Position numbers and translations under genes: made by a program
In this document: positions 14,527 through 58,457 of the stretch, one piece after another
Position numbering within the stretch: the stretch's first letter is position 1
Layout of the letters: the number at the start of each line of letters is the position of its first letter
Notes under the pieces: generated by a model
What the model saw: only the letters and a program-made list of their open reading frames with translations
The model's database searches: none
Told to the model about the DNA's origin: nothing
Source of the DNA: Gammaproteobacteria bacterium
GTDB taxonomy: Bacteria; Pseudomonadota; Gammaproteobacteria; Eutrophobiales; Eutrophobiaceae
Reading direction: 5' to 3'
Assembly: GCA_965215365.1 (NCBI GenBank)
Contig: CBDCDS010000003.1
Coordinates: forward strand, 128,001-192,000
DNA: 64,000 nt

Positions 14527-14577
14527 ATGAAACGAGATACACTTTTACCCCCCCCCCCCCCCCCCCCCCCCTGCTAG
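14527..14577 (+). other. Leader ORF MKRDTLL-P8-C containing a C24 homopolymer (14548-14571)
   Basis: AGGAGA SD upstream of ATG 14527; 24 consecutive C; TAG at 14575-14577. Confidence 0.75.
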
Positions 14578-14680
14578 AGTTCACCCCGCGGCGGGGACTC
14601 TCTCGCCTGTGCAGCTCCGCTGTACCCCCTTCCAGGGTCAAGCGCTGCGCGGGCGATCACGCTTGAAAGGGGAGATCCTC

Positions 14681-15247
14681 ATGACACGATTCTTTGCCAA
14701 TCCCATTGCCCTGACCCTTCTGGCCGCCGCGCTGGTGGCAACACTGCTGGCCGCGCCCGCGACGGCGCAGACGCCGCAGTGCACAAAGCAAACCTGTACG
14801 GTGGTGGTGACCGGCAACATCAACGGCTATCACATACAGGGCTGCGGCGGTGATTACCTGCGCTACCATGTGCGGCGGGAAACGACCAATCCCGCCATCA
14901 CCTCCTACACTTCTTTTGGCAACATAACCCTTGACATCTACCACAGCACGATCAACACGAGTGGTCGGGAATCGGAAACATATGAAATCAACCAGCTGGA
15001 ATGGCGGAGGGATGGCGGCAGTTGGCAAGCTATCACAGGCCCGAGGATCGGTCTTGCGGTGTCAGAACTGAACACGGACGTCACCCTGGACATCCGACCT
15101 AGGGCCAGAGCTACGATCAGGGGCTTCGCTGCCGGCATGATGTCCTACGCGATCAACGAGGTGGGCAGACCTAATTTAACCCGCTATTCCACCCGCCTCA
15201 CCTCGGTCAACTCCTTCATCTCGACTGGTGAGGGGTGCGCGCCCTGA
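14681..15247 (+). CDS. Secreted hypothetical protein (homopolymer-leader family, copy A)
   Basis: AAGGGGAG SD upstream of ATG 14681; signal peptide ending ATA-Q; 4 Cys including one near the C-terminus. Confidence 0.8.
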   Translation: MTRFFANPIALTLLAAALVATLLAAPATAQTPQCTKQTCTVVVTGNINGYHIQGCGGDYLRYHVRRETTNPAITSYTSFGNITLDIYHSTINTSGRESETYEINQLEWRRDGGSWQAITGPRIGLAVSELNTDVTLDIRPRARATIRGFAAGMMSYAINEVGRPNLTRYSTRLTSVNSFISTGEGCAP

Positions 15248-15274
15248 CGGCCCCTCGGCGACCCAACCCACCCC

Positions 15275-15300
15275 GGGGCGGCCTTGCGGTCGCCCCTTTG
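15275..15300 (+). terminator. Probable intrinsic terminator
   Basis: GGGGCGGCC-TTGC-GGTCGCCCC followed by TTTG. Confidence 0.6.
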
Positions 15301-15301
15301 T

Positions 15302-15382
15302 CTTGTCCAGGACAATATGTATTGAACCTGGACACTCACACAGCCTGCCCCCTGAGTCTCATCTGTATTGAACCTGGACAAG
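15302..15382. repeat. 17 bp direct repeat TGTATTGAACCTGGACA plus inverted partial copy (IS-end-like)
   Basis: Copies at 15318-15334 and 15364-15380; CTTGTCCAGG at 15302-15311 inverts CCTGGACAAG at 15373-15382. Confidence 0.65.
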
Positions 15383-15426
15383 CGTTTTACCCCGGATGAA
15401 ATCTTCGGTATGATTCGCCCCCGTAC

Positions 15427-15502
15427 GGGTCGTTAGCTCAGTCGGTAGAGCAGCTGACTTTTAATCAGTTGGTCGCAGGTTCGACTCCTGCACGACCCAC
15501 CA
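15427..15502 (+). tRNA. tRNA-Lys (anticodon TTT)
   Basis: GGGTCGTTAGCTCAGTCGGTAGAGC...CTTTTAA...GGTTCGACTCC...CGACCCACCA; 76 nt. Confidence 0.97.
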
Positions 15503-15521
15503 CCCTGAAGAGGAGGTTGCG

Positions 15522-16079
15522 ATGTCTGTCAATAATACTGAAAGAGAATACGGCGTTGTCAGTAAAAGTTGGCATTGGCTGACAGTGGTTATCGTTATCG
15601 TCTTGTTCGTGCTCGCGTCAAGGTCCGAAGACCTGCCACGCGGACCGGAAAAGCTGGAACTGGTGTTGCTGCATGCCTCGTTCGGTTTGCTGCTGCTGTT
15701 TGTGCTGGCGGCGCGCCTGCTCTGGCGCTGGTGCAACGCGACCCCGGCGCGCCTGCCGCATATCCCAACCTGGCAGCATGTTATCTCCAGAGCCGTCCAC
15801 TACGGGTTGTACATCGTCCTCATAGCCCAGGCCTTAGTCGGCATGGCCCGGTTTGCCACGGCCGGCTTTGAGGTGCCGTTCTTCGGCCTGTTCAAGGTGG
15901 CGTTTCCCATGGGTAAAGATGAAGCCATGAACGAACTGATGGGGACCATGCATGAGATCCTGCCGTGCATCCTGCTGGCACTGCTGGCACTGCATGTACT
16001 TGCAGCCCTGTATCATCACTTCCGGTTGCAGGACGATACCTTGCGGCGCATGACCTGCGGTATGAAGTCGGCAGATTAA
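15522..16079 (+). CDS. Cytochrome b561 (YceJ/CybB-like)
   Basis: HWL, HASFG, HYGLY, HVLAALYHH haem ligands; TLRRM C-terminal motif. Confidence 0.9.
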   Translation: MSVNNTEREYGVVSKSWHWLTVVIVIVLFVLASRSEDLPRGPEKLELVLLHASFGLLLLFVLAARLLWRWCNATPARLPHIPTWQHVISRAVHYGLYIVLIAQALVGMARFATAGFEVPFFGLFKVAFPMGKDEAMNELMGTMHEILPCILLALLALHVLAALYHHFRLQDDTLRRMTCGMKSAD

Positions 16080-16153
16080 CGGAGGCTTGAATTTTCGGCA
16101 ACCGGCCACCATTTTCCCCTTGCCTCAATCCATTATTTTGAGCATATAGCGCC

Positions 16154-16540
16154 GTGCCGATTTATGAGTATCAATGTCAGACCTGTGGTCACAGGTTGGA
16201 GAAATTACAGAAGATCTCCGCCGCGCCGTTGACCGATTGCCCCGCGTGCGGGCGCCCACACCTGCGCAAACTGGTGTCTGCGGTGGCCTTCCGGCTCAAG
16301 GGCGGTGGGTGGTACGAGACGGATTTCAAGGACGAGCAATCCCGCCGCAACATAGCCAAGGATGATGACAACGCCGCCACCAAGGCCGACGGGGCCAAGA
16401 CCGACGAGGCCAAAGCCGACGGCACCAAGCGCGCGGACGCCGCCGGTGACACCACGAAAAAGCCGGACAGTCACAAGAAAGCCAGCGTCAAACCCGACAC
16501 AACCGGTTCCGGCGCTACGCCTGCTGCCCCCGCCGGTTGA
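16154..16540 (+). CDS. FmdB-family zinc-ribbon protein
   Basis: MPIYEYQCQTCGH...CPACG...FRLKGGGWYETDF; low-complexity tail. Confidence 0.92.
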   Translation: MPIYEYQCQTCGHRLEKLQKISAAPLTDCPACGRPHLRKLVSAVAFRLKGGGWYETDFKDEQSRRNIAKDDDNAATKADGAKTDEAKADGTKRADAAGDTTKKPDSHKKASVKPDTTGSGATPAAPAG

Positions 16541-16570
16541 GTTGTTGCGTATCCCCCAGGAGGCATATCT

Positions 16571-16647
16571 GTGAATGCCAAACAATTGATAGATGAGGCT
16601 ACTTCCCTTCCTGTCGAAGAGCGCGCGTTAGTAATAGAGGGTGCCTC
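16571..16647 (+). pseudogene. 5' fragment of an addiction-module antitoxin (TIGR02574-like)
   Basis: AGGAGG SD; MNAKQLIDEATSLPVEERALVIE, then similarity ends at AGGGTGCCTC (16638-16647). Confidence 0.6.
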
Positions 16648-16822
16648 CTGGCAACCGGATTTGAATTTTTTGAGTAAATCTATAGACTACAGCCCTTTGC
16701 TACTAACCATCCAACGGGGGATAGGCGAGCCGGACCTTACACTGCCGGGTGCTGACACATTATTGTGCGCGGCGCTTGCAACGGCTTGAACCAGCCCGTC
16801 CGAATTTACCAGGAGAATTGTC

Positions 16823-18838
16823 ATGTCACCTTTGGACCTTGCCCTGATATGCAGTGTTATTGCTATCCTGTATGGCATCTTTTCAGTGCGCTGGATTCTT
16901 GCCCAGCCGGAAGGCAGCGAGCGTATGCGGGAGATTGCCGCGGCCGTACAGCAAGGCGCGGCGGCTTATCTCAACCGGCAATATACGACCATCGGCATAG
17001 TGGGCGTGGTTCTGTTCGTGGTGCTCGGTCTGGCGCTGGACTGGTACACCGGGGTTGGCTTTTTGATCGGCGCGGTGTTCTCTGGCGCCGCCGGCTATAT
17101 CGGCATGAACATTTCCGTACGCGCCAACCTGCGTACCGCCGAAGCCGCCAGCCAAGGTATCAACGCGGCCCTGATGATCGCGTTCCGGGGCGGCGCGATC
17201 ACCGGGCTGCTGGTGGTGGGGTTGGGCCTGCTGGGCGTTGCCGGTTACTATGCCGTACTGCACAAGCTGGGCGCGGACAGCGACACCATCCTGCATGCAC
17301 TGGTGGGGCTGGGCTTTGGCGGTTCCCTGATCTCCATTTTTGCCCGGTTGGGCGGCGGTATTTTCACCAAGGGTGCAGATGTGGGCGCAGACCTGGTCGG
17401 CAAGGTGGAAGCCGGCATCCCTGAGGACGACCCCCGCAACCCGGCGGTGATTGCCGACAATGTGGGTGACAACGTCGGTGACTGTGCGGGCATGGCCGCC
17501 GATCTGTTTGAAACCTACGCGGTAACCGTTATCGCGACCATGCTGCTGGGCAGTCTGGTGGTCTCCGGCAGCGAAAATGCAGTGCTCTACCCGCTGGCCC
17601 TGGGCGCGGTGTCCATCGTCGCTTCGGTCATCGGCTGTTTCTTCGTTCGGGCCGGGGAAGGCGGCAGTATCATGGGCGCCCTGTACAAGGGCCTGATCGT
17701 CGCCGGCGTGCTGGCCGCTATTCTGTTCTACCCGGTCACCCACTGGATGATGGCCGATGTTGCCGGCATGTCCGCCGGAGCCTTGTACGCCTGCGCGCTG
17801 ATCGGCCTGACCCTGACCGCAGCCATGGTCTGGATCACCGAATATTACACGGGCACCGACTACGCGCCGGTGAAGCATGTGGCCGCTGCGTCGGAGACCG
17901 GCCATGCCACCAATATCATCGCCGGACTCGGCGTGTCCATGAAGTCCACCGCCTTGCCGGTGCTGGCGGTGTGTGCCAGTATTTGGGGCACCTATGAGCT
18001 GGCCGGGCTGTACGGCATCGCCATTGCCGCCACCTCCATGCTGTCCATGACCGGCATTATCGTTGCCTTGGACGCCTTCGGCCCTATTACCGACAACGCC
18101 GGTGGCATCGCGGAAATGGCGGAACTGGATGAGAAAATCCGCAATATCACGGATCCGCTGGACGCGGTGGGCAACACCACCAAGGCGGTGACCAAAGGCT
18201 ACGCCATCGGCTCGGCGGGTCTGGCTGCGCTGGTGCTGTTTGGCGACTACACCCATGCGCTGGAAAAGGCAGGGGCCCACGTGGAATTTTCACTGTCCGA
18301 TCCTATGGTCATCATCGGCCTGTTCATCGGTGGCCTGATACCTTACCTGTTCGGCGCCATGGCGATGGAAGCGGTAGGGCGCGCGGCCGGTTCGGTGGTG
18401 CACGAGGTGCGGCGCCAGTTTCGCGAAATCCCAGGCATTATGGACGGTACCGGCAAGCCGGATTATTCCCGCGCGGTGGACCTGCTGACCAAATCGGCCA
18501 TCAAGGAAATGATCATTCCTTCCCTGTTACCAGTGTTGGCGCCGGTGATCGTGGGCAAGGTGCTGGGGCCCGTGGCGCTGGGTGGAATGTTGCTGGGGAC
18601 GATTGTTACCGGCTTGTTCGTGGCCATATCCATGACCGCCGGCGGCGGCGCCTGGGATAACGCCAAGAAATATATTGAAGACGGCAACCTGGGCGGCAAG
18701 GGCTCAGCGGCGCACAAGGCCGCGGTGACCGGCGACACGGTCGGCGACCCCTACAAGGACACCGCCGGGCCGGCCGTGAACCCGCTCATCAAGATCATCA
18801 ACATCGTCGCCCTGCTGATCGTGCCGTTGGTGGTGTAA
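16823..18838 (+). CDS. hppA: Membrane-bound H+-translocating pyrophosphatase, K+-independent type
   Basis: [26 protein letters not shown] (Lys at the K+-independence position), DTVGDPYKD. Confidence 0.95.
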
Positions 18839-18910
18839 GCATGGCGTCATCCTCGACGCGCAAGCGCTCAGCGAGCCATTGATTGGGCTCGCTGAGCAGG
18901 TTGATAGCCA

Positions 18911-19390
18911 TTGGCAAAAGTACTGGCAGCGCTGGTATTCCTGCTCGCACTGAATGAGCCGCGCCAGTTTTCCAGACTGGACCTGTGGGAGAAGCAATGC
19001 AATGGCGGCGACGCGTCGGCCTGCACAAAGTTGGCCGAGACGCAGGTCGGGCTTGAGAAACTGGCGCGCTTGGACCAGCTGGCGCAGCGTTACGGCGCCA
19101 GCGCCAACCGGGATGAGTTGGAAGAAGACGGCAGACCGCGTCTGAACATCGCCTACATGCAGGTGATGCAGGACTTCATTGAGGCGGAACAGGCCGCCGG
19201 TCACGAAGAACTGTCCTACGATGAGGAGGCAGTCAGCCATTGCGCTGACCACTTCCATAATTTCTGGCTGAGTAACAAACTTTGGTGGCCCACCGACGAG
19301 AACGACGAACCGAGCTGGACCGACATTTACTATTACGCCGTCGACCACTATCACGGCGTCTGTCTGCGGCGCTATTTTAACCAGTTTTAA
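18911..19390 (+). CDS. Hypothetical protein
   Basis: 159 aa ORF with hydrophobic N-terminus; start uncertain. Confidence 0.6.
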   Translation: MAKVLAALVFLLALNEPRQFSRLDLWEKQCNGGDASACTKLAETQVGLEKLARLDQLAQRYGASANRDELEEDGRPRLNIAYMQVMQDFIEAEQAAGHEELSYDEEAVSHCADHFHNFWLSNKLWWPTDENDEPSWTDIYYYAVDHYHGVCLRRYFNQF

Positions 19391-19442
19391 GAGTTGTACG
19401 TAGCCGCAGCGGGGCGTGGGTTATGCCGCAGTAGATTACACG

Positions 19443-20648
19443 TTACGCCGGCGCCGGTTGCACGGCTACCGGCTCGTCCCGTATCGGCCAGTGCAGCAGC
19501 GCGGCAATAAGGCCCAGCAAAACGGCCAGTTGCCACATCAGGGTATAGGAACCAGTCGCCTCGAACAGGTAGCCGCCCAGCCACGCGCCCAGAAAGCTGC
19601 CCAGCTGGTGGCTGAAGAACACGATGCCGAACAGCGTGCCGCCGTAACGCACTCCGAAAATGTCGGACACCAGGCCGCTGGTCAACGGAATTGTGCCCAA
19701 CCAAAGCAGGCCCATGGCGGCGGCAAACAGCCCCAGGGTCAACTCACTCAGAGGCAGGGCGATGAACAGCGCGATCACCAGCGCCCGGCCCAGGTAGAGC
19801 CCGCTCAACAGGTATTTTTTCCGGTAACGCCCCCCATACAGGCCGGCCAGATAAGTGCCGAGGATATTGAATATCCCGATCAGACCCAGTGCGAATGCGG
19901 CGCGCATGGGCGCTATGGCGGAGTCATGCAGAAACGCCGGCAGGTGGGTGGCGATAAAAGCCACGTGAAACCCGCATACCAGGAAGCCGCAATTCAGCAG
20001 CCAGTAGCCGGAATGCGCGCCAGCGCTACGTAGCGCCTGCGACAGGGTCTCGCCGGGCACATTTTCGCCACTGGCCTCAGTGCCGGTCTGCCGCTGGAAT
20101 ATCAGGGTCAGCAGCGGTACGATCATGACGCAGGCGGCGAGGATCAGGAACGCTACGCTCCAGCCATACAGCCCGATGAACAACTGGCTGAGCGGCACAA
20201 AGGAGAACATCCCGAACGACCCGCCGGCCGAGACGATGCCGAATGCCAGACTGCGCTTTTCCGGCGTTACCAGCCGACCGATTGCGCTCAATACCACGGT
20301 AAACGTGGTGCCGCTCATGGCCAGCCCGACCAGCATCCCCAGGCTCAGGTGCAGACCGGTCGCAGTTGACGTGAACGCGGTGAGAACCAGACCGGCCATG
20401 TACATCAGGCTGGACAGGATCAGCATGCGATAGCTGCCGTACTTGTCCGTCAGCATCCCGGCCAATGGTTGTGCCAGGCCCCAGATCAGGTTCTGAATGG
20501 CAATAGTCAGCCCGAACGTGGTGCGGGTCAATTCCAGGTCGGTCACCACCGGCTGCAGGAACACGCCGAACGACTGCCGGATACCCATACTCACGGCAAC
20601 GATAGTGCCGCCAACGAGTATCAGCAAAACGAATTGAGACTGGCGCAT
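19443..20648 (-). CDS. MFS transporter
   Basis: About 12 TM helices; GIRQSFGVF, GFLVCGFHVAFIATHLP, HQLGSFLGAWLGG. Confidence 0.92.
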   Translation of the reverse strand: MRQSQFVLLILVGGTIVAVSMGIRQSFGVFLQPVVTDLELTRTTFGLTIAIQNLIWGLAQPLAGMLTDKYGSYRMLILSSLMYMAGLVLTAFTSTATGLHLSLGMLVGLAMSGTTFTVVLSAIGRLVTPEKRSLAFGIVSAGGSFGMFSFVPLSQLFIGLYGWSVAFLILAACVMIVPLLTLIFQRQTGTEASGENVPGETLSQALRSAGAHSGYWLLNCGFLVCGFHVAFIATHLPAFLHDSAIAPMRAAFALGLIGIFNILGTYLAGLYGGRYRKKYLLSGLYLGRALVIALFIALPLSELTLGLFAAAMGLLWLGTIPLTSGLVSDIFGVRYGGTLFGIVFFSHQLGSFLGAWLGGYLFEATGSYTLMWQLAVLLGLIAALLHWPIRDEPVAVQPAPA

Positions 20649-20712
20649 AGTTGTTCGGTTACGTCCGGCGGGGTAATGACCTTGTCGAGCTGCCGGCTAT
20701 TTCCGGTCACGT

Positions 20713-21783
20713 TCAGTGCCGGGAGCACACCGGCGGTGCTTGTTCGTCCAGGTTCAGCAGCCTGAAATAGTTCTCTCCCAGCGCGATGTTGCGGAAGGCG
20801 GCGTCATCAAGGTAGCCGATGATGCGACTGGTGGCCTCAAGTTCCTCTTTGTACACGTCGAAATTCTTGTTGCCGGAGGCAACAAAATCAGTGCCGGGTA
20901 GCACCCGGTCGGAGTAGGCGTTCAGGAACGGCACGTAGCGCGTCCGTTTGGCCGGATCGGAAAAGATATTATCTTCGAGCACGCGCCAGGAAATATCGAC
21001 CATGAGTTTCGGATACTGGTCCAACAGCACTTTCAGAATGTTGATGTGCGTGTCCGCAGAAATATCGACCAGCTCCCTAGACAGGCCAAGATGCATCCAG
21101 ATGATGCGGTTGTCGGGATAGCGTTTTAACAGCTCCTCAATCCAGGTCAGGTATCGGGTCGGTTCCTCATCGTTGCCCAGATCCGAGTGGATGGCGATGG
21201 GCATATCACGCGCACGTAATTCTGCCATAAACGGTTCCCATTCCCTGATTTTCTCCAGCGGCACAGGTTCATGTCCATTGCCGTACAGCGCCTGCTTGAC
21301 CAGATTGACTTCCCCCATCCACCTGAACAGTCCGGGAAACTCCCGGTCCAGCAAGCGCATGCCGGCCAGTACGGTTTCCGGACTGGCAAGGTCAGGAAAA
21401 GTCATGGACAAGGTGGCATGCACAGAACTTGTGCCCTCGGCCAGGTAACTCAGCGCGTTGGCAAAATCATTCTTCAGGGTCGGCGTCACCGGCGTGCCGG
21501 GACAATCGAGATAATAGGTGCAACTCGAGGTAATCGGCAGCATTTGTCCGATTCCATAAATGTTCACAAAACGCACCCCGGTTTGTTCCAGATACCCGAT
21601 TACCTCTGCAAACGGCAGCGACGGTCCGCCGAAAGGACGAAAGTGCAAATGAGTATCCACCACAGTCGTAACCGGCTGCGCGCCGCGCGCAAAGCACGCA
21701 CGCGCCGCTGCGTCAATATCCGAGGCCCGCACATCCGCAAGGCCACACCCGAAAACAACCAGCACCACGACGCGCGCCAGCAT
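20713..21783 (-). CDS. Secreted amidohydrolase-family metal-dependent hydrolase
   Basis: DTHLH, GEVN, IHSD, WMHLG, GTDFV motifs; signal-like MLARVVVLVVF start. Confidence 0.75.
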   Translation of the reverse strand: MLARVVVLVVFGCGLADVRASDIDAAARACFARGAQPVTTVVDTHLHFRPFGGPSLPFAEVIGYLEQTGVRFVNIYGIGQMLPITSSCTYYLDCPGTPVTPTLKNDFANALSYLAEGTSSVHATLSMTFPDLASPETVLAGMRLLDREFPGLFRWMGEVNLVKQALYGNGHEPVPLEKIREWEPFMAELRARDMPIAIHSDLGNDEEPTRYLTWIEELLKRYPDNRIIWMHLGLSRELVDISADTHINILKVLLDQYPKLMVDISWRVLEDNIFSDPAKRTRYVPFLNAYSDRVLPGTDFVASGNKNFDVYKEELEATSRIIGYLDDAAFRNIALGENYFRLLNLDEQAPPVCSRH

Positions 21784-21944
21784 CAGCTTGCCACAGCGCA
21801 GATGTTCATAAAGCATAGTGCGCACATTATATTTCAAAATTGCACACATAGTCGCTCAGATTTAGGCAGTGTATCATTGATTAAATACCGACGAATGAAT
21901 AGATATTGTGTATGATGTTCAGCCAAGCTATCGAATTAGAGAAC

Positions 21945-22205
21945 AAGTATGAAGATGATGCTGATGATGTGCATCATCTGCGCGAAGTCACCATGGCAGC
22001 CATACCCAACGGCAGGCTACAGAAAAGGTACAATCCCGACGCTGACGACGGTATCTGGTTGGCGGGAAGGAATGCCCCTACGCTGGGGGAAGATTTCAGG
22101 GTGAGAGTGAGTTTCAGCAGGTTAAAATCGAAGGCAGCATGGCGAGTTCAAACCCTGACTTATGATGAGTCAGATCAGGGGTGTGCAGGGTCATGGCACT
22201 CATAG
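21945..22205 (+). pseudogene. C-terminal remnant of an SfiI-family type II restriction endonuclease
   Basis: PNGRLQKRYNPD...AGRNAPTLGEDFRVRVSFSRLK...WRVQTLTY resembles the SfiI C-terminus (from memory); no N-terminal catalytic part; directly upstream of an m4C MTase. Confidence 0.65.
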
Positions 22206-23203
22206 ATATTTCAAAAAAACTGGAGCCTGATAATATTTATTGTGGCGACAGCAGGGTGCTGCTAAAAGGAATTGAAGCAGAATCCATCTCTCTAAGTGTT
22301 TGGTCTCCCCCGTACCATGTTGGAAAAAATTATGAGAAAGATCTTACTTTTACTGAGTGGAAAGCATTGCTGAGAGAGATCATCCATTCCCACTTTCCTG
22401 TTATAAAACCAGGTGGTTTCCTGGTCATTAACATCGCCGACATCTTATGTTTCAAAGATGATTCCATGCCCAGGATAATGGCAGAAAACGTATCCCGAAG
22501 AAAAGTGGCTCTCTCCAGGGAAGAAATAATCAGGATCATGAAAAAATATCCGGATTGGAACAGACATAAATTGGCCAGTCATTTTAATTGTAGTGAGCAA
22601 ACGATAGACAGGCGACTTAACGGCAACAATGTAAGGGGAGGTAAATATCAGTCTCAGACGCGCGTTTGTCTGGTGGGTGGTTTTATTGAAAAAGCAGCTT
22701 CGGAGGCTGGTTTTTATCTGTATGATCGTCGTATCTGGCTTAAAGATGCGGCTTGGGAAAATTCAAAGTGGCATACCATATCCTATCGCTCAGTGGATGA
22801 ATCCGAATATATTTACATATTCTGGAAACCCGGTATCACAAAGGTAGATCGGGCGAGATTGACCAGGGAAGAATGGATTAACTGGGGTTCCAGGGGAGTC
22901 TGGGAGATTTCGTCGGTTCGCAGTAACTCAGATCATGATTCAAAATTCCCGGTCGAGCTACCCAGAAGGGCAATCAGACTTTTTACTGATCCGGGCGAAG
23001 TAGTGCTCGATTGTTTTGTCGGCAGCGGCACCAGCGTAGTTGCCGCCTTTAGTGAGGACAGGCAATACATCGGCATAGACAAGGAAAGCACATCTGTGGA
23101 AATTGCTCGGAAAGCCGTGGAATCGTTGCATGGACGCAAAAAAGAATCGGTGCAGATGGAGTTAATGATTCGAGATATCGAAGCTGTTTATAATGCAGGG
23201 TGA
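22193..23203 (+). CDS. N4-cytosine DNA methyltransferase (beta class) with internal HTH-like insert
   Basis: SPPY motif precedes DCFVGSGTS; HDSKFP; lower GC than flanks. Confidence 0.9.
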   Translation: MALIDISKKLEPDNIYCGDSRVLLKGIEAESISLSVWSPPYHVGKNYEKDLTFTEWKALLREIIHSHFPVIKPGGFLVINIADILCFKDDSMPRIMAENVSRRKVALSREEIIRIMKKYPDWNRHKLASHFNCSEQTIDRRLNGNNVRGGKYQSQTRVCLVGGFIEKAASEAGFYLYDRRIWLKDAAWENSKWHTISYRSVDESEYIYIFWKPGITKVDRARLTREEWINWGSRGVWEISSVRSNSDHDSKFPVELPRRAIRLFTDPGEVVLDCFVGSGTSVVAAFSEDRQYIGIDKESTSVEIARKAVESLHGRKKESVQMELMIRDIEAVYNAG

Positions 23204-50765: not shown

Positions 50766-51489
50766 CCCGTATCTCTCACCGGGTGATGCGAAGATCGCGC
50801 CGGATTGGTTCTGCCTGTGGGTGCCTGCGACGATGAGCATAGCGGTAGCTATGGTTGAACAAGCACGTGCCCACAGGCAGAACCAAGACCCGCGAGGGCG
50901 CATCAAGCGCAGTGGGTTAGGTGGAAAGAGCAGCAGTATTACCATAACTTATTGAGAGTAATCATGTTGCACGAGACAACAAGCGGCTTGGTGAGAGATG
51001 CGGGTTAACCCGCATCTCTCACCGGGTGATGCGAAGATCGCGCCGGATTGGTTCTGCCTGCGGGTGCCGGCGACGATGAGCATAGCGGTAGCTATGGTTG
51101 AACAAGCACGTGCCCACAGGCAGAACCAAGACCCGCGAGGGCGCATCAAGCGCAGTGGGTTAGGTGGAAAGAGCAGCAGTATTACCATAGTTTATTGAGA
51201 GTAATCATGTTGCACGAGACAACAAGCGGCTTGGTGAGAGATGCGGGTTAACCCGCATCTCTCACCGAGTGATGCGAAGATCGCGCCGGATTGGTTCTGC
51301 CTGCGGGTGCCTGCGACCGAAACCATAGTGGTTCTCTGGTTGAGGAAGCACGTGCCCGCAGGCAGAACCAAGACCAGCGAGGGCGCATCAAGCGCAGTGG
51401 GTTAGGTGGAAAGAGCAGCAGCATTACCATAACTTATTGAGAGTAATCATGTTGCACGAGACAACAAGCGGCTTGGTGAGAGATGCGGG
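50766..51489. mobile_element. Three head-to-tail MITE copies (50766-51004, 51009-51247, 51252-51489)
   Basis: 243/243/242 bp period; copies separated and flanked by a single TTAA. Confidence 0.95.
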
Positions 51490-52154
51490 TTAAGCAGACC
51501 GCATTGCTGGTGTTCACGAAAACGCCTGTACCGGGCACAGTGAAAACCCGCTTGCTGTCGGTGCTGGACGCGCAGCAGGCCGCCGCCATCCATGCCGAAT
51601 TATTGTGCTTTACCCTGGAGGTGGCGCGCCGCGCCGCCGTGAGTACTGTCGAACTGTGGTGCACACCGACCCGGCGGCATCCGCTTCTGCAAGGTCTTGC
51701 GCGCAGGTTTGCAGTGACGCTGCAGACACAGTCTGGCGCCGACCTGGGGGAACGTATGGACGCCGCCATGACGCGGACGCTGGCAAGCCACCGGCAGGTG
51801 CTGCTTGTGGGCAGTGACTGCGTGGACCTCAGCCCGGAGGATATCAACCTTGCCCTGGAACAACTGGCCGCGGGCAGCGAGGTGGCGCTGGGGCCGGCCC
51901 TGGATGGGGGTTATTACCTGATCGGGCTGTCCAAGCCGCAACGGCGCCTGTTTGAAGGCATCGACTGGGGCACCGATCGAGTCCTGCAGCAGACCCGCGC
52001 GCGAGTGGCGCAGTTGGGGTTAAGTTTGTTTGAACTGCCGCCGCGCCGGGATTTGGATCGCCCTGAGGACTTGCGCTATTTCCGGCCGCACGCGCCGACC
52101 GGGGAAGTCATTGCCCGGCAGGCGGGTTTTCTTCCTTGGGCGCGTAATCCTTGA
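51483..52154 (+). CDS. DUF2064 / TIGR04282-like glycosyltransferase; ATG supplied by the MITE
   Basis: FTKTPVPGTVKTRL, QSGADLGERM, GSDC, GPALDGGYYLIG, DLDRPEDL. Confidence 0.88.
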   Translation: MRVKQTALLVFTKTPVPGTVKTRLLSVLDAQQAAAIHAELLCFTLEVARRAAVSTVELWCTPTRRHPLLQGLARRFAVTLQTQSGADLGERMDAAMTRTLASHRQVLLVGSDCVDLSPEDINLALEQLAAGSEVALGPALDGGYYLIGLSKPQRRLFEGIDWGTDRVLQQTRARVAQLGLSLFELPPRRDLDRPEDLRYFRPHAPTGEVIARQAGFLPWARNP

Positions 52155-52608
52155 TAAATTGCCGCGCCAGTTTTTTCGCTTCCTCCAGTTCTTCCGCCGA
52201 CAGGTTCTGTTCAGCTGTGGTGAGCGCGGCCATGGACTTCTTGTGCTCCTGCTCAGCGCCGGCGCGGTACCAGGCATACGCGTACTCGTAGTCTTTAGGC
52301 ACCCCTCTACCCTTCATGTAAAGCTCAGCTAGGTTATACTGGGCCTGTTTGATACCTTGTTCCGCAGCCTTGCGGAACCAACCCGCCGCTTCATCGTAAC
52401 TCTGTTCCACGCCGTGCCCGCGCAAATACATCATGGCGACATAGTATTGGGCAAGGCCGTGGTCAGCGGTTTCTGCAAGCGAACGCATGGTGTTGTAGGC
52501 CTGCTCATATTCCCCCCTGGAATAGGCAAACACACCGCTATAGAAGTCGGCAAACGCGGCGGGCGCGGACCAACACGCGAGCACAAAGACCAGCAAAAGT
52601 TTTTTCAT
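52108..52608 (-). CDS. Secreted Sel1-repeat protein
   Basis: Signal peptide; AQYYVAMMYLRGHGV, AQYNLAELYMKGRGV. Confidence 0.9.
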   Translation of the reverse strand: MKKLLLVFVLACWSAPAAFADFYSGVFAYSRGEYEQAYNTMRSLAETADHGLAQYYVAMMYLRGHGVEQSYDEAAGWFRKAAEQGIKQAQYNLAELYMKGRGVPKDYEYAYAWYRAGAEQEHKKSMAALTTAEQNLSAEELEEAKKLARQFIKDYAPKEENPPAGQ

Positions 52609-52683
52609 GGGTGGGATTATAGCCTATATTTTTTTCGGCGCCGGCGTTCAGTATTCTCGTGTGCGCGGGAATGAACCTGGGTC

Positions 52684-53352
52684 TCAACCCGGTTGATTGG
52701 TAAAAAAGGTCTTGATCTGGTTAGCCAGAGACTTGCAGGCGTTTTCTTGGACGCGGGCCAGTAGTGGCACCGGGATGATGACTGCCGGCATGAATGAGGT
52801 GCCTTTGGTTTCGGCGTTGATCTTGCCGGATAGGGCCAGTTCTTTGAAATCCCAGATACTGGCCTCGTAGTTGGCCTCATCCTTCCAGTAAGCAAACCCG
52901 AAACAACCGCCGCCGCCCGGTCCTACGGCGCAGGACACGGAGCCGGATTTATCCGTTCTTTCGGTGGCGCCGTCTATCCAGACGAAGTAGCGCAGGTTGA
53001 AATCGTTGAATTTCGAGGCAATCGCGGGGATTTGCGCCAGCCGGCCCAGGTTTTTCACGTCCATAGGCGCGGTGCTGGTCTCAAAATAGGGGTACATGCT
53101 GTCGACAAATTCCTGTTCCGGGATCACGTTGATGTCGGACTGGCCCTGGCGTAGCGATTGGCCGACACAACTGATGAAGTCATTCTCGGTTTCATAGCCG
53201 GAACTGTGCCGCCGTCCCAGCACCACGATGGCCTCGCCCCCGGCGATCATTGCCGTCGGCGCTTCCCGGTGCTCGTCGATCACGGTCGTGCTTTTGCAGC
53301 CAGACAGCAAGGCTGTGGCGAAGAGGACAGTGACGGCGGTCGGTATGTTCAC
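52684..53352 (-). CDS. Conserved hypothetical lipoprotein
   Basis: Lipobox LSGC; CAVGPGGGGCFG motif. Confidence 0.75.
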   Translation of the reverse strand: MNIPTAVTVLFATALLSGCKSTTVIDEHREAPTAMIAGGEAIVVLGRRHSSGYETENDFISCVGQSLRQGQSDINVIPEQEFVDSMYPYFETSTAPMDVKNLGRLAQIPAIASKFNDFNLRYFVWIDGATERTDKSGSVSCAVGPGGGGCFGFAYWKDEANYEASIWDFKELALSGKINAETKGTSFMPAVIIPVPLLARVQENACKSLANQIKTFFTNQPG

Positions 53353-53369
53353 GCTCGTAGCCTATTCAG

Positions 53370-53559
53370 GTTATTCATCCACAGATAACGCAGATAGTTA
53401 TTCATCCACAGATAACGCAGATTAACGCAGATTATTTCAGGAATCTTCGGTCGCATGTGCAAAAGGAGAACAAGTAGTGGCGCTTAACAATGCCCATGCC
53501 CTCCGTATTTTCTGTAATGAAAAACTATCTGCGTTAATCTGCGTTATCTGTGGATGAAT
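53370..53559. repeat. Inverted-repeat element built from ACGCAGAT-type units
   Basis: Perfect 33 bp IR at 53400-53432 / 53527-53559; 26 bp tandem duplication at 53370 and 53397. Confidence 0.85.
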
Positions 53560-54169
53560 CAAACTGCTCCAGCCAGGCGCTGACGTTTGCCACTTTCGAA
53601 AAGCCAAGCGCAAATCTGGCGCCGGCGTCGCGTAAGGCCTGGTTGACCGCAGCGTTAAGGCCCTTGTTGCGGCTTTTCATAAATTCGGTGGAAGATTTGC
53701 CGTAACCGGTCACCGACCAGTTGGCAATGGCGCTGCCGTCCCGGTTGTAGAGTTCCACGTGGTACTTGATCCAGGCCTCGTAGAAGTCCGTCTTAGTCTC
53801 TGCTGGCAGGGCAAACTGCATTTCTGAGATGCTGGGCAGCAACACTGCGTGCACCTCGACCCGGGTGTTGGTTGTTGGCACTTCCGTGACCTCAGCGAAC
53901 ATGGCAGTCAGGATTTGCTGAAACAGGGCCAGATGGGAGGCGCCGCTGTCGATCTTCCATTCGGGCCGGTCTTCGGAATCTTCCTCGTAAACGTAATTAC
54001 GCAACTCGTCCGTATAGACTACCCCCATTTTCACCGGCAGGCGGGAGACGACCGGACTGGGAATCTCGCTGTCCACCCGCAACGACATGGACTGTTGGCA
54101 GGCAGTGAGGAACAACGCCAGCCCGAGCGGGGCAATGAGTTTATACAACACCTGTATGCGCATATTCAC
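53534..54169 (-). CDS. Hypothetical lipoprotein
   Basis: Lipobox LTAC; last codons (SSTDNAD*) come from the IR element. Confidence 0.75.
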   Translation of the reverse strand: MNMRIQVLYKLIAPLGLALFLTACQQSMSLRVDSEIPSPVVSRLPVKMGVVYTDELRNYVYEEDSEDRPEWKIDSGASHLALFQQILTAMFAEVTEVPTTNTRVEVHAVLLPSISEMQFALPAETKTDFYEAWIKYHVELYNRDGSAIANWSVTGYGKSSTEFMKSRNKGLNAAVNQALRDAGARFALGFSKVANVSAWLEQFDSSTDNAD

Positions 54170-54187
54170 AGATTAGCACAAATACAA

Positions 54188-54325
54188 TCCGCAGATGACG
54201 CAGATGGGCGCAGATATTTTCGATGATTCATGGATGCTTTAGGTTGCCCCCTGCATTGACGATGGCGAGCAGAAAAATTTTGAAATTCCTGAAAATAATC
54301 TGCGTTCATCTGCGGCATCTGCGGA
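54188..54325. repeat. Second ACGCAGAT-unit inverted-repeat element
   Basis: TCCGCAGATGACGCAGATGGGCGCAGAT...ATCTGCGTTCATCTGCGGCATCTGCGGA; shares GATTATTT(T)CAGGAAT with the first copy, in inverted orientation. Confidence 0.8.
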
Positions 54326-55330
54326 CTAAAATGCCCGGCCTGGCTCGTTCAGACCTACATAAGCCCCGCCGTTCTCGTGAGTGAGTTGGCGCATGAGGGC
54401 GGCGAAATGCCTGTTAGTCAGCTGGAAGTGTTCGGGGGCGCTGGCGGGAACCGGGAAGCCAACTGCGTGGATGCGCACTTTGGTGTTGCCGTGCTGGTCT
54501 TTCGGGTTGATGCGTTCCACCGCGTCCAGCACTTGCCTGATTGAACCGGAAAATTCATCGCCGTACACGTAAATGCTGATCTTCTTGCCGGGGTCGTAAA
54601 ACGTGCGGATCGCTTGGGTAATCCCCTCCACCGGGCTGCTGTTGCTGAAGGTGCGCCAACTGCGCAAAGTCCTGATGATGACCCGGCGCCGGCCTTCGGT
54701 GTCGGGTATCCATCTGCGCCGGTATTGGGAGAACAGGTACTCACCCATGTCGCTCATGATCTGTATGCCTTGCAGGCGGGGATAGACGTCCAGAGTGGTG
54801 ATTAACTGCTTGATCATGTTTTCCCAGTGACTGTTGACCATGCTGCCTGAGGTGTCGATGATGAAGATGACGTACTCGCTGTCCACCGGAATGCCGCCGA
54901 TCAGGCCGCTCTGCGCCCGATCGGTCTGCGCCAGCAAGCGTTTCATCTCCGCCGTCAGAGTTTGCAGGGCCAGTTCAAATTCACCCTTGATGATCTCGCC
55001 CACGGCAGAATCGTCGCGCACGCTGTTATAGCGCAGCTCCTCTTGCACCAGTTCCGCCTCCAGGCGCGCCACCCGTTGCCGCCACTCGGAACGCTGTTCG
55101 TGTTTGGCGTTCAGTTCCCGGTCCAGAACTTTCGCCTCGCCGCGAATTTCAAACAACTGGATCTGTAATTCCCGCACGATGCCTTGCAGAGATTCCTGGG
55201 CGCGCTCCAGGATGGGGCTGTCACCGGTTTTGGCGATCATCAGCAACAAGATGATAGCGCCGAAGCCGCAGGTGATGACGTCCAGGAAGGAAATGCTGAA
55301 CGCCTCGTTCTCGCGCCGTTTTTTCCTCAT
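54326..55330 (-). CDS. Membrane-anchored coiled-coil VWA-domain protein
   Basis: FSISFLDVITCGFGA N-terminus; DTSGS MIDAS motif. Confidence 0.85.
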   Translation of the reverse strand: MRKKRRENEAFSISFLDVITCGFGAIILLLMIAKTGDSPILERAQESLQGIVRELQIQLFEIRGEAKVLDRELNAKHEQRSEWRQRVARLEAELVQEELRYNSVRDDSAVGEIIKGEFELALQTLTAEMKRLLAQTDRAQSGLIGGIPVDSEYVIFIIDTSGSMVNSHWENMIKQLITTLDVYPRLQGIQIMSDMGEYLFSQYRRRWIPDTEGRRRVIIRTLRSWRTFSNSSPVEGITQAIRTFYDPGKKISIYVYGDEFSGSIRQVLDAVERINPKDQHGNTKVRIHAVGFPVPASAPEHFQLTNRHFAALMRQLTHENGGAYVGLNEPGRAF

Positions 55331-56412
55331 GGCCAGTCCTCGCTGGGGATGAGGAAGGCGCCGTTGGTGCTCATGGCCAGACGCCAGAAGGCAAAAGCCG
55401 CGTTGGGGTCGCCTTCCATGGGCGCCAGGATCACATTCATCGGTATGCCACCGGGCAGACGTTCTACCGCCCGGGTAAACAAGTCCAAGCGTTGCTTGCC
55501 AGTGATGGTCGCCCCGCGTACCCGTTTGGAACCCTGAGTAGGCAAGCCGTCGGTGATCAGATAGACGTTATCGGGCCGGGGCCGCAGCTTACTGATAGTA
55601 ACAAAGGCCTGCTCCAGATTAGTGCCGCCTTCCGGCACGATCCGGCCCAGGGCTTCGATCATCGCGTTCAATTTCGCCTTGTTGCTGACCTCCAGCCACT
55701 TCCCGGCCAGCCCCGGTAACAATGCGCGCGCTTTTGTATTGAACACGTAGATCTGGTACTGGCTGTCCCTGGGCAGCCGCGCGCTGAGCCAGTCCACCAT
55801 CCTTAACGTCTGCACCCATTTCGGCGCGTTGCGTTTTACGCCGTCACGCATGTTGCGAAAGCGGATGATATTGACGATGGTATCGTCCAGCATGCTGCTG
55901 GAGACATCCAGCAGGATGAGGATACGCTTGCCGTCCAGCTTCAGCCCGGTCAGATACTCGCGCTTGCCGTCACCGACCAGACGCCGGACATCGCTGCCGC
56001 GGTCCTTCAGATCTTCCTGCAACTGTTGCTTCTGTTCCTCCAGTTGCTTGATGTTGAGCTTCAGTTGCTCCAGCTCTACGCTGCTGGTAGTCTCCGACAG
56101 TTGTTCGATCAAGGCGCGCGTCTCCTCTATTTTCGCCATAATGCGCCGCGCCATGCCCTGCGCCACGACCAGTTCCTCGTCGATTTCCGAGATGGTGTTG
56201 CGGGTTTTGGCGAGGTTCTGCCGGCCTTCCAGTATTTCCTCTTCCAGCAACATCACCTCAGCGGTCTGCTCCCGGTTATTAACGGGAATGGGCACGTTGG
56301 TATCGACGTTATGCTTGATGATGAGGAACAACAGCACCGCCGAGCCGAAGCCGCAGGACATGATGTCCAGAAACGATAGGCTGAAGGGAGTAAGCAGTCT
56401 GCGGTTACGCAC
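55327..56412 (-). CDS. Membrane-anchored coiled-coil VWA-domain protein
   Basis: FSLSFLDIMSCGFG; DVSSS, GGTNL, ITDGLP. Confidence 0.85.
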   Translation of the reverse strand: MRNRRLLTPFSLSFLDIMSCGFGSAVLLFLIIKHNVDTNVPIPVNNREQTAEVMLLEEEILEGRQNLAKTRNTISEIDEELVVAQGMARRIMAKIEETRALIEQLSETTSSVELEQLKLNIKQLEEQKQQLQEDLKDRGSDVRRLVGDGKREYLTGLKLDGKRILILLDVSSSMLDDTIVNIIRFRNMRDGVKRNAPKWVQTLRMVDWLSARLPRDSQYQIYVFNTKARALLPGLAGKWLEVSNKAKLNAMIEALGRIVPEGGTNLEQAFVTISKLRPRPDNVYLITDGLPTQGSKRVRGATITGKQRLDLFTRAVERLPGGIPMNVILAPMEGDPNAAFAFWRLAMSTNGAFLIPSEDWP

Positions 56413-57719
56413 TATGTCAGGACTCTGATCAGCGCGAATTCACGGTCGCAGTGGGCAAAGCTGATGGTGTCGCCCGGCCTGAGGTCGGTATTGCTTGCGG
56501 CGGCCCGACCGTTGACGTAAACCGCGCCATGGCTTGCCGGAAACAGGGTTGCCGTGGCGTCGTTCAGGGCTACCGAGCAAAGCGGGTTGTGGCTGTCGGA
56601 CTGCACCGGCGCGCCCTGCGCAGACAGGTATAGCGGCATCGCCCCCAGCGGATAGGCCTCGACGCCGGCTAGGATATGGGTTGGGCTGGCTTGTTGTGCC
56701 AAGACTGCCGGCGCGGTAACGCCAATTGCCGGCTGTGCAGTGGCCGCAAGCTGAGTGACGAAGTAAATCGCTGCGCCGGCCTTGCGCTGTTGCTGCACAT
56801 AGTCCATACAACCGGCATATACGGCGCACACGTCCAAGGTATCGACCTGCGGGGTGACTCGCGTCAGCTGTTCGACAACAGCCGGCAAGCCGGCCAGACG
56901 CGGGTGCAGCAACGCCACCCGGTCGCTCTCGACGGCAGCGCTGAGCTTGTCGTACAACGGTTGTAACGCCGCCACCAGTTGCTCCCGGCCCACCCGGGCC
57001 TGGTAACGGGCCTGCTCAAATTCAATATCGACCTGCGTCTCAGCCCCCTGCGCCAGTTCGCGCAGACATTGCGCCATGCGGTTGCACAAGGCCTGTTCCG
57101 TTACTGCGTGGTGCAGGGGGTCAAAACGGGATTGCCGAATGAACAGGTCGGCAACATGGTTGACGCAGCTATCCTGAATTTCCAGCAACCCGACTTCATT
57201 GACAACCTGCACCGCCGTGCGCTGCACCGTGTCTGACACCTCCAGGGAAGTCATTACAGTCTGATGCAGGTGGATATCCAAGTGCACGTAACTCCCGGCA
57301 CCGGCCGTCGCCGCCAGCGCCGCGACAGCGCTGTCCACCAGACCCACCGCAGTAAACGGGGAGGCCTCCAACAGCCCCAGCAGCAGGGCCAGTTGCTCCG
57401 CGCTGAAACTACCCGGCACCGCCAGCGCCACCTGCTCCACCCCATCCGCCATTTCATGCAAAGACAGCAAATGGGCGTAGGCCAGATCGGCATTATGCCG
57501 CGCCAGTTTCGAGTGGTGCTTGAAGCCATCCTGATTAAGATCACTCCAAAACCGGCTGAAGGTATTACGCGGGTCAATATGGGTAGCCGCCAACGCCGCC
57601 CGCCCCAGCTCAACCCGATCCTCTTTGAGCACCGCAATGCCGGGGCTACTCACCACGACCTCACCGCCCCGGAAGAGCGTTACTCCGGCATCGTTGAGTT
57701 CAATGACGGCGGTGTTCAT
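56412..57719 (-). CDS. Hypothetical protein with actin/Hsp70-like N-terminal region and C-terminal FHA-like domain
   Basis: IELNDAG, AVPGSF...LLLGL, VDSAVAA; C-terminal VYVNG...LRPGDTI. Confidence 0.65.
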   Translation of the reverse strand: MNTAVIELNDAGVTLFRGGEVVVSSPGIAVLKEDRVELGRAALAATHIDPRNTFSRFWSDLNQDGFKHHSKLARHNADLAYAHLLSLHEMADGVEQVALAVPGSFSAEQLALLLGLLEASPFTAVGLVDSAVAALAATAGAGSYVHLDIHLHQTVMTSLEVSDTVQRTAVQVVNEVGLLEIQDSCVNHVADLFIRQSRFDPLHHAVTEQALCNRMAQCLRELAQGAETQVDIEFEQARYQARVGREQLVAALQPLYDKLSAAVESDRVALLHPRLAGLPAVVEQLTRVTPQVDTLDVCAVYAGCMDYVQQQRKAGAAIYFVTQLAATAQPAIGVTAPAVLAQQASPTHILAGVEAYPLGAMPLYLSAQGAPVQSDSHNPLCSVALNDATATLFPASHGAVYVNGRAAASNTDLRPGDTISFAHCDREFALIRVLT

Positions 57720-57874
57720 TTATATGCTTACCGCACCTGCAAATGCCGCAGCAGGTTGACGTCGCAGTAATGCTGTACGAGAAGGAAAGTTATTTTATTC
57801 ATTGACAAACCTTTGTAGATGTGTCACAAAGTGGGTGTTGTAATTCCGAATTCCAAACACACTAGGAGACGAGT

Positions 57875-58457
57875 ATGACACAACTGACACACTACCTCAA
57901 AAATCGGGGGGGGGGGGGGTAACCCTGTAGCCGAGAAAATATCCGCAACGAAAGCTGCCCCTGTACCGGGAGCAGCGTTCCTGATTTTCGTGCTGGCGCT
58001 GCCCGCCGGTGGGGCGCTGGCCAACACGACTACCGGGATGATCGACGGCAATTATGCCGTGCAGTTGCCGGCCGGTATTTACATGCGCAACTCGAGGGGG
58101 TACACAACGGTCTGTATTCAAATCACTGGCAGTGGCAGCACTGCGACAGGGACAATTAAGGCCCGCAGGCACAATGGCACGTGGGAGAGTCTCACCGGCT
58201 CTAGGACGGTCACGTTACTCGGATTGGGCGTAGAAAACCCCTCAAATGACCAACTGGGAAGAAGAGAACGTGCTTGGCTGGCATCTTGGGGCCCCAGACC
58301 CACAAACTGGAACGGCAACAATCGCCGCTTTGATGAACATGGCTGGAGAGGCCACTTGACAAGCGGAAATGTATTGCGCGTTGCAGTGGATAATCATATC
58401 CTGAAAATGACCGGAGATGGCCGATTACCCATGACCCATGGGAGCAGCTGCCCGTAG
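57875..58457 (+). CDS. Secreted hypothetical protein frameshifted at a G14 tract (homopolymer-leader family, copy B)
   Basis: AGGAGA SD, ATG 57875, G14 at 57906-57919, TAA at 57920; losing one G restores a continuous ORF with signal peptide AAFLIFVLALPAGGALA. Confidence 0.75.

Follow-up and report, generated by a model that had tools for sequence, protein, structure and literature searches.

Two orphan genes in a 64,000-nucleotide (nt) stretch of gammaproteobacterial DNA (GenBank assembly GCA_965215365.1, contig CBDCDS010000003.1, positions 128,001–192,000; the whole stretch is called the window) are headed by long homopolymers, a run of 24 C at locus 1 (14527–15247; C24) and a run of 14 G at locus 2 (57875–58457; G14). 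Both loci are likely members of a set of at least 15 genes across the genome that encode small, predicted exported proteins and have slippage-prone tracts. A preliminary description of the two loci had proposed a dispersed and diversified repertoire of homopolymer-switched secreted proteins, and that proposal holds at the scale of the genome, with 15 genes in several families. In the proposed mechanism, slipped-strand mispairing during replication would add or remove tract bases. One tract phase in three would give the signal peptide and mature protein (ON), and the other two phases would meet a stop within 0–5 codons at most loci (OFF). Each cell lineage would express a random subset of the repertoire. 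Tract length varies between otherwise identical DNA, and ON and OFF states are mixed.

The source genome (G000) consists of 2.73 Mb in three contigs with a GC content of 57.9%, and the window corresponds to C3:128001–192000. The genome contains 25 G or C runs of 9–24 nt, and no run of A or T is longer than 9 nt. Fifteen of the 25 G/C runs lie 10–31 nt after a Shine-Dalgarno sequence (SD) and ATG and are followed by 160–263 open codons in exactly one frame, and these open frames begin with a signal peptide–like segment. The scan for SD, leader, tract, and signal peptide therefore returned 15 genes, not two. The expected proportion of runs in this layout is about 3%, a crude figure based on the first 35 nt of 2600 genes, and the binomial P for 15 of 25 is ~2e-16. 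C is on the sense strand in 14 of the 15 genes, the exception being the poly-G of locus 2. Further members are one gene with C8 and a short “locked” one with C6. An all-against-all BLASTP comparison placed locus 1, C3:310488, C3:1703032, and C3:1661544 in family A; the other tract products are family B (three members), three identical 263-aa copies, and five singletons including locus 2. Most of the genes, in this genome and elsewhere, continue after the tract with (K/R)LTAL..., which gives TAG and TGA in the off-frames. MutS and MutL are intact in G000. A search of 40 relatives of G000 (22 from its own genus) gave no homolog of the locus-1 product (P0003) or the locus-2 product (P0001) at E ≤ 0.001; homologs came only from other lineages. 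Runs of at least 12 C or G are nonetheless present in 19 of the 22 same-genus genomes. Among the genomes searched, G036, a distant relative from the same class and another family, has by far the most matches to a run of twelve C or G (227 + 304), and its set of long G/C tracts may be larger still.

The features of locus 2 and its immediate surroundings are as follows.

57729–57776, no strand: perfect 48-nt direct repeat on either side of the locus-2 segment, left copy
57864–57922, plus strand: SD AGGAGAC (57864–57870), ATG 57875, leader, G14, and TAA (57920–57922)
57921–58457, plus strand: locus-2 gene body (P0001), 178 codons open from the tract
58483–58513, plus strand: inverted repeat after the gene, 10-nt arms, 11-nt loop, no T run, found by eye
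58520–58700, no strand: multi-copy repeat resembling a miniature inverted-repeat transposable element (MITE), containing GGCCACCTC at 58527; limits approximate
59122–59169, no strand: right copy of the perfect 48-nt direct repeat

The locus-2 leader has 10 codons (MTQLTHYLKN), and the G14 run at 57906–57919 begins 31 nt after ATG 57875 with TAA directly behind it. The other two frames after the tract stop after 0 and 2 codons, and frame arithmetic gives G10, G13, and G16 as the in-frame lengths. P0001 has a long n-region, the hydrophobic core AAFLIFVLALPAGGALA, and a predicted cut before NTTTG that would leave a mature part of ~143 aa with the C terminus SSCP. Only one reading frame is usable, and it includes the tract. 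There is no plausible internal start before the hydrophobic core, and the listed GTG at 57990 falls within the core. Locus 2 would be a standard translational switch that is OFF at G14 and yields an exported pre-protein, cleaved after ALA, when it is in frame.

Locus 1 has a longer list of parts.

14327–14355, plus strand: promoter-like site, TTGACT, 17 nt, TAGTAT
14349–14477, no strand: MITE-like insertion of ~129 nt containing GGCCACCTC at 14449, between the −10 region and the 5′ untranslated region (UTR)
14483–14526, plus strand: switch-module 5′ UTR with SD AGGAGAC (14515–14521), 100% identical to the C3:1703032 module
14527–14577, plus strand: leader open reading frame (ORF) MKRDTLL-P8-C-stop, with C24 at 14548–14571, then TGC TAG, stop at 14575–14577
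14573–14680, plus strand: linker, open for 36 codons in the main-gene frame, unrelated to the post-tract sequence of the paralogs
14681–15247, plus strand: family-A gene (P0003, 188 aa); its own ATG opens a complete signal peptide
15275–15296, plus strand: intrinsic terminator–like hairpin, 9 pairs and then a T-rich tail (terminator scan)
15315–15380, plus strand: two partial tandem copies of a multi-copy insertion-element terminus (...TGTATTGAACCTGGACA), just before tRNA-Lys

Translation from ATG 14527 gives the 7-codon leader MKRDTLL, and C24 begins 21 nt after that ATG. One downstream frame is open for 224 codons (from 14573), and the other two stop after 1 and 30 codons. By frame arithmetic, C23 or C26 fuses the leader in frame with the downstream gene, giving a pre-protein longer by 58 residues. 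At C22 or C25 the leader ends at TGA 14664–14666, 15 nt before ATG 14681, and ribosomes that terminate there could allow translational coupling. The gene-proximal SD is GGGGAG at 14669–14674, and the separate ATG at 14681 is 110 nt from the tract end and 104 nt from the leader stop. The P0003 signal peptide, MTRFFANPIALTLLAAALVATLLAAPATA, ends in ...APATA with a predicted cut before QTPQC; the mature part of ~159 aa is all-beta with 5 Cys and the C terminus GEGCAP. The terminator scan found no terminator-like site between the leader stop at 14577 and ATG 14681, so tract and gene are probably co-transcribed. A hairpin in the linker (~14602–14656) has a 13-bp stem, no U run, and a folding z-score of −1.7. 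A structure that masks the gene's own SD and is opened when the leader is translated is not supported, given this z-score and the finding that the SD is touched by a 4-bp helix only.

The common layout that the preliminary description gave for the two loci is present at both: an SD, a short leader, C24 or G14, a prompt stop, a signal peptide, and a protein that ends near a Cys. The AT-rich upstream regions are also there, with GC fractions of 0.33 at locus 1 and 0.38 at locus 2 compared to 0.579 for the window. The downstream hairpins fared unevenly. The one at locus 1 is terminator-like, whereas the inverted repeat at locus 2, with its long loop and no T run, was not called by the terminator scan.

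The front ends of these genes are modular. The locus-1 5′ module consists of TTGACT-17-TAxxAT, a UTR of ~45 nt, the SD, ATGAAACGAGATACACTTTTA, and a C run. The paralog C3:1703032, which has TATAAT as the second hexamer of the same promoter, has a module 100% identical to this one, and the two proteins are only ~30% identical. Past the tract, only seven further bases (TGCTAGA) are still homologous. Less exact versions of the module stand in front of the genes for three different proteins, at C3:1661544, 1974726, and 2482531. The MITE-like insertion, whose approximate limits come from alignment to the uninterrupted module at C3:1703032, splits the locus-1 promoter; TTGACT-17-TAGTAT remains. The C3:310488 body (91–97% identical between copies) follows one of three distinct leader-and-promoter modules depending on the genome, and module and body meet precisely at the poly-C. 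From these alignments, locus 1 is a putative chimera in which the switch module of a paralog has been set ~100 nt upstream of a complete family-A gene. Its tract would probably modulate expression more than gate it strictly. The sense-strand bias toward C may reflect common descent of the front-end module.

Tract lengths were compared between copies of the same DNA. At locus 2, an 814-nt contig from sequencing run X1 has exactly four G fewer at 57906 (G10, in frame) and 0 other differences, and a 631-nt contig from run X5 is identical to the window (G14, out of frame). Contigs from runs X6 and X10, which are ~2% diverged, do not cover 57759–57914 and restart in the tract (57915 and 57917), leaving its length unreadable; contig joints near 58567–60333, with sides of less than 30 nt in repeat DNA, were left out of the analysis. 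Three 3.6-kb repeats in the source genome have 0 mismatches and carry C19, C14, and C20 tracts; apart from the tract, the copies differ by two gaps in one pair only and by no substitutions. Paralog pairs elsewhere have the same flanks and different runs (C17/C11, C10/C9, G15/G12, and C18/C12). The tract-length variability predicted for the window loci is thus observed both at locus 2 and in the identical repeats of G000.

The phases of the tracts were then read as ON or OFF. In the locus-2 family, P0004 (L059; MTQQACFKNLRRGGGRPRS...) is translated straight through a G10 run and is ON. P0015 is the ON form (C9-type) of a gene whose counterpart L047 has C10 and is OFF. Read-through in L059 and P0015 indicates that the upstream ATG is the real start. 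The annotated L047 product, P0014, is truncated and begins inside the signal peptide. The public annotations of the family-A relatives P0011, P0013, P0014, and P0017 all start within the mature protein or the signal peptide, likely because the out-of-phase tract misled the gene caller. Family-A loci in other genomes carry C9–C17 at the same position in 11 of 13 cases, and by our own reading 6 are ON and 5 are OFF. An automated pass over the non-redundant foreign tract-headed genes gave 9 ON and 20 OFF (n = 29; 31% ON), a tally that retains 2 or 3 probably spurious rows (L050:2236, L058:1092). This value is close to the one-third ON expected of random phases. C is on the sense strand in 27 of these 29 genes. 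The source genome has 2 ON and 13 OFF tracts, and every OFF tract is one base from an ON length, with 7 requiring −1 and 6 requiring +1. The mixture of lengths and phases may reflect switching within a clone. Two members of the locus-2 family in G041 (L061 and L064) have G15 and G12 right after TTGACC, ~60 nt upstream of the ATG; by this position they represent a putative promoter-type version of the switch on the locus-2 protein family.

Tract genes closely related to those of G000 are found in distant genomes. The DNA of C3:310488 is 97% identical to L048 and L049 over 649 nt, and 95%, 94%, and 93% identical to L050, L052, and L051, respectively. Past the stop codon, the similarity extends for only ~13 nt. 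L046 matches the locus-1 gene at 83.6% identity over 544 nt (window 14752–15295, terminator included). The database labels of these genomes are Pseudomonadales, Arenicellales, Paracoccaceae, and Aestuariivita, and their Der GTPases are only 38–45% identical to the Der of G000. DNA identities of 93–97% set against Der identities of 38–45% leave recent transfer as the only explanation. Judged by these comparisons, the tract genes are evidently mobile and horizontally transferred.

The foreign genes lie in units with GGTAsTGnnTCAGTTTGAAA inverted-repeat ends (L047, L048, L049, L051, and the sampled units). This pattern occurs in 42–86 copies per genome in five genomes compared to 0–2 for a control pattern, and in 0–3 copies per genome in G000 and its 40 relatives. 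A sample of loci from G041, G042, and G045 (L070–L093) was analyzed besides L047–L051. Nineteen of 20 sampled inverted-repeat pairs delimit a bounded unit of 747–2107 nt, and the cassettes are mostly about 0.75–1.1 kb (747–1131 nt). A C or G run of 8–18 nt is present in 17 of the 19 cassettes, in most of them ~100 nt inside one end and followed by a signal peptide and an ORF of ~200 aa, and a perfect 8-bp target duplication flanks 10 of the 19. No transposase was found for the GGTAsTG..CAGTTTGAAA cassettes. Four longer inverted-repeat pairs again held switched genes and no transposase-sized frame, and L077 holds fragments only. The ends, target duplications, and contents identify the foreign units as mobile insertion cassettes with a phase-variable secreted-protein passenger.

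Within the source genome the 3.6-kb repeat is an insertion sequence (IS) of the IS66 family, with a 507-aa ORF that matches PF03050 (E 2e-42) and ends that read GTAACTACTC.... Its cargo is the MSTY-poly-C gene for the 263-aa secreted protein, and 8-bp target duplications flank two of its three copies.

C3:879833–883444: IS66-family element
C3:~1921370–1924990: IS66-family element
C1:~65600–69230: IS66-family element

The element also has a 230-aa ORF with a DPPY motif that looks methyltransferase-like by eye and has no Pfam match. The mobility that had been supposed for the window loci is therefore seen in the IS66-family cargo, in the foreign cassettes, and in the genes that are 93–97% identical across lineages. 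Both window loci are without the cassette inverted-repeat ends, and the single exact cassette end in G000 is beside the C13 gene at C3:1974726. A plausible but tentative reading is that poly-C-headed genes form a shared pool of transposable contingency cassettes among deeply divergent co-living bacteria, with the poly-C doubling as switch and module joint, and that the window loci are domesticated copies that lack the cassette ends. Each cassette in such a pool would come with a ribosome-binding site, leader, switch, and export signal of its own. Sequencing runs labeled “sponge metagenome” share only 0.09–0.10 of the words and say nothing about habitat.

The preliminary description had also placed both loci near a shared element marked by GGCCACCTC. 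The sequence is indeed near both, and the genome has 131 copies compared to ~41 expected. Only 2 of the 15 tract genes have it nearby, so it is not part of the switch device, and its presence at the two loci is incidental and due to an unrelated MITE. In all four runs, contig depth over the MITE-like repeat downstream of locus 2 (58539–58805) is ~20 times the depth over the flanks. The 48-nt repeats enclose a 1345-nt segment with the locus-2 gene, the MITE, and a small ORF (58699–59004, minus strand) that we take, from its sequence, to be antitoxin-like. The neighbors of the segment are a 435-aa gene and a 267-aa membrane-protein gene. The repeats and their setting resemble a long target duplication around an insertion into a single intergenic region. 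Locus 1 is located between der and tRNA-Lys (15427–15502) and adjoins the two insertion-element termini. This terminus (...CTGAGTCTCATATGTATTGAACCTGGACA, window 15315–15380) has 46 exact 15-mer copies in the genome, for example at C3:1703147, 2482419, and 310308, and 6 of the 46 are within 1.5 kb of a tract gene. Many of the termini end 4–7 nt upstream of a TTGAC (−35-like) hexamer, which suggests either a target preference for promoters or part of an outward-facing promoter.

Several points weigh against the assignment of the two loci to a switched, exported set. Expression of the locus-1 gene need not depend on the tract because the gene has its own SD and an ATG 104 nt past the leader stop. 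The promoter scan found no promoter for locus 2. The signal peptides at both loci, each a hydrophobic segment ending in A-x-A, were judged by eye, and 10 distinct switched proteins of G000, P0001 and P0003 among them, gave no Pfam match above the gathering threshold. The tract lengths at locus 2 come from assembled contigs of four public runs from four studies, placed on 54000–62000. Run X1 may be the window's own source sample, in which case G10 compared to G14 could partly reflect differing sequencing or assembly of one population. All 13 of the G000 tracts of at least 10 nt are OFF, for which (2/3)^13 = 0.005 in a post hoc calculation, and this bias could reflect decay or selection against expression. 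With all 15 genes counted, 2 ON compared to one third gives P ~0.08 by our own arithmetic. The all-OFF bias in G000 was set aside as a signal given the 9 ON of 29 in the wider sample.

The dependence of locus 1 on its tract is an evenly balanced question. Modulation by the tract and an uncoupled remnant appear about equally probable; in the latter case the module would be stranded and the gene translated constitutively from ATG 14681. A remnant is suggested by the SD and ATG that the gene has to itself, by the complete signal peptide that begins there, by the end of module homology right after the tract, by the insertion that breaks the module promoter, and by the relative L046, which begins with the same MTR... 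and has no tract. Set against this, a promoter-like TTGACT-17-TAGTAT survives the insertion and no terminator precedes the gene. In four same-genus loci (L014, L025, L026, and L028) the tract is 15–30 codons before the signal-peptide Met and in frame with it. The tract-to-ATG frame at locus 1 is also open for 36 codons, so that C23 or C26 would fuse the two, but the chance of such an opening is ~0.23 by our own arithmetic, and the point is weak.

The remaining alternatives concern the set as a whole. Long-read assemblies err most often at homopolymers, and all the OFF tracts of G000 are one base from an ON length, which is what would be seen if run lengths had been miscalled in genes that are intact and always on. 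The corrections needed go both ways, which disfavors a one-directional miscall. The X5 contig independently reproduces G14, the X1 contig departs from it by 4 bases and not by a single one, tract lengths in identical repeats are up to 6 bases apart, and ON and OFF are both present in eight other assemblies. The genome is also without long homopolymers in general, as its A/T runs stop at 9 nt, and such an artefact is very unlikely. Graded, non-genetic control is a less remote but still unlikely explanation. RNA polymerase slippage, or ribosomal +1 frameshifting or stalling on CCC (Pro) codons, would let every tract length yield some product, and the leader would be a translational sensor of, for example, EF-P activity. 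Polymerase slippage and CCC-C frameshifting are established phenomena, and the sense-strand C in 14 of 15 and 27 of 29 genes, hence always poly-Pro, the tracts of up to 24 nt, and the stops within a few codons in both off-frames are all consistent with this idea. However, locus 2 and L059 use poly-G (Gly), L061 and L064 carry the tract in a promoter-like position after TTGACC, and the DNA length itself differs between identical copies, which is enough for switching. The tract genes might instead be recently acquired cargo that is being lost by frameshift. Thirteen of the 15 G000 genes are OFF, an internal stop makes L046 a pseudogene, and the match of L062 contains a TAG. Decay is nevertheless improbable, as all 15 G000 bodies are still open for 160–263 codons in exactly one frame, and the 3.6-kb copies differ in the tract (plus the two gaps in one pair) and have no substitutions. 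The design is also seen in 11 of 13 family-A loci and in the 17 of 19 sampled cassettes with a G/C run of at least 8 nt, and the overall ON fraction is about one third. Slipped-strand switching of a set of exported proteins is the reading retained here.

The preliminary description aligned colinear motifs in the two window proteins and treated them as one family. This kinship was not upheld. BLASTP of P0003 against P0001 gave 15 of 38 identities around RRxxGxW (E 0.002, single comparison), an alignment of 38 residues only. The hhalign probability was 27% for a 4-sequence family-A profile against P0001, 34% for 11 against 8 sequences, and 9.5% for 23 against 14 sequences, where the signal peptide was the only aligned stretch. 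A true kinship should gain with larger profiles, and the fall in probability indicates that the motifs are most likely chance and shared composition. The two proteins are best described as members of two apparently unrelated orphan families that are not demonstrably homologous.

Structure prediction gave a fold class for one of them. The AlphaFold2 (AF2) model of P0003 is an all-beta β-sandwich with a predicted local distance difference test (pLDDT) score of 70.8, and the P0001 model (pLDDT 52.3) is too poor for a fold comparison with P0003. The best Foldseek match of family A was the CLIPPER domain of fibrillar adhesins (E 6.6e-4, template modeling (TM) score 0.35), and no match exceeded a TM score of 0.39. 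A VIA search gave a best Z of 6.3, under the stated noise level of about 8. Distant profile matches of family A were to large immunoglobulin (Ig)-like repeat proteins with Big_7 or HYR_4C. These models and matches suggest that family A is an Ig-like β-sandwich with conserved cysteines. The 19 members of alignments A2 and A3 had no Pfam match, and in the ESM Atlas P0001 scored at best 0.87 to unnamed clusters and P0003 gave nothing usable. Pfam, the ESM Atlas, and the fold searches pointed to no specific function, and the fold matches were to generic β-sandwiches only. The switched proteins are predicted to be exported, and they may act at the cell surface or toward a host or phage.

The suggestion that the two loci represent a new contingency system does not stand, as poly-G/C tracts in 5′ coding regions are a textbook mechanism in Neisseria and Campylobacter. 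By analogy, the mechanism is presumably classical slipped-strand phase variation, which is already known. The pilC tract and the opa repeat of Neisseria both lie in the signal peptide–coding region, and to our knowledge opa genes have not been described as transposon cargo. Campylobacter switches affect mostly glycan-modifying enzymes in an organism without MutS and MutL. The Neisseria pilC, lgt, and pgl genes have poly-G/C tracts of 9–21 nt in the 5′ coding region (PMC5953494). The likeness to pilC1/pilC2, lgtA, and pglA is a 5′ G/C tract in the gene for an exported or surface protein with ON/OFF control by frameshift. The genes described here differ from pilC in their occurrence in an uncultured, non-pathogenic gammaproteobacterium, in tracts of up to 24 nt, in encoding small orphan proteins without Pfam matches, in the use of one front-end module ahead of unrelated proteins, and in riding on transposable cassettes. 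The Neisseria opa genes (~4–12 paralogs with CTCTT/CTTCT repeats) are similarly multi-copy, switch independently, and are expressed in combinations (PMC5953494). They have a pentamer repeat and one protein family, whereas G000 has homopolymers and at least three families plus singletons.

Campylobacter has tens of genic and intergenic G/C homopolymer switches in a small genome (PMC6321876, PMC8355987). In contrast to the Campylobacter jejuni phasome, G000 has intact MutS and MutL, its switched products are small secreted proteins, and the tract is almost always right after the start. Locus 1, where a tract-containing short leader ORF precedes a separate gene, resembles the leader-peptide phase variation by transcription attenuation of Streptococcus gallolyticus pil1/pil3, but it has no terminator between leader and gene, and its hairpin has no U run and a z-score of −1.7. 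Mobile insertion cassettes are defined by IS-type inverted repeats, target duplications, and a passenger gene in place of a transposase (PMC5444012, PMC4337579). The passenger in the units described here differs from the known ones in being a phase-variable secreted-protein gene with its own leader and tract. The available portions of the literature on phase variation, including sponges and symbionts, and on mobile insertion cassettes, two topics that were not searched jointly, describe no such passenger. Likewise, the accessible part of the literature that pairs phase variation with sponge symbionts contains no paper on such switches in sponge-associated bacteria. What appears unusual is the all-orphan cargo of small exported proteins, the use of one front end for unrelated bodies with the tract as the joint, and the presence of the genes as transposable passengers shared across deeply divergent genomes.

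Slipped-strand phase variation has been worked out almost wholly in host-adapted pathogens and commensals. Here, an uncultured gammaproteobacterium with a small genome appears to devote at least 15 such switches to orphan exported proteins, and in unrelated bacteria dozens of inverted-repeat cassettes in each genome have the same design, with near-identical genes shared across lineages. One practical consequence is that gene callers truncate or miss tract-headed genes. If the reading is correct, stochastic variation of the surface and secretome would be a transferable community resource and not a lineage trait alone. The two protein families in the window and the roughly ten protein types in the genome would then be a candidate set for what these bacteria hide from or vary toward, such as a host or phages.

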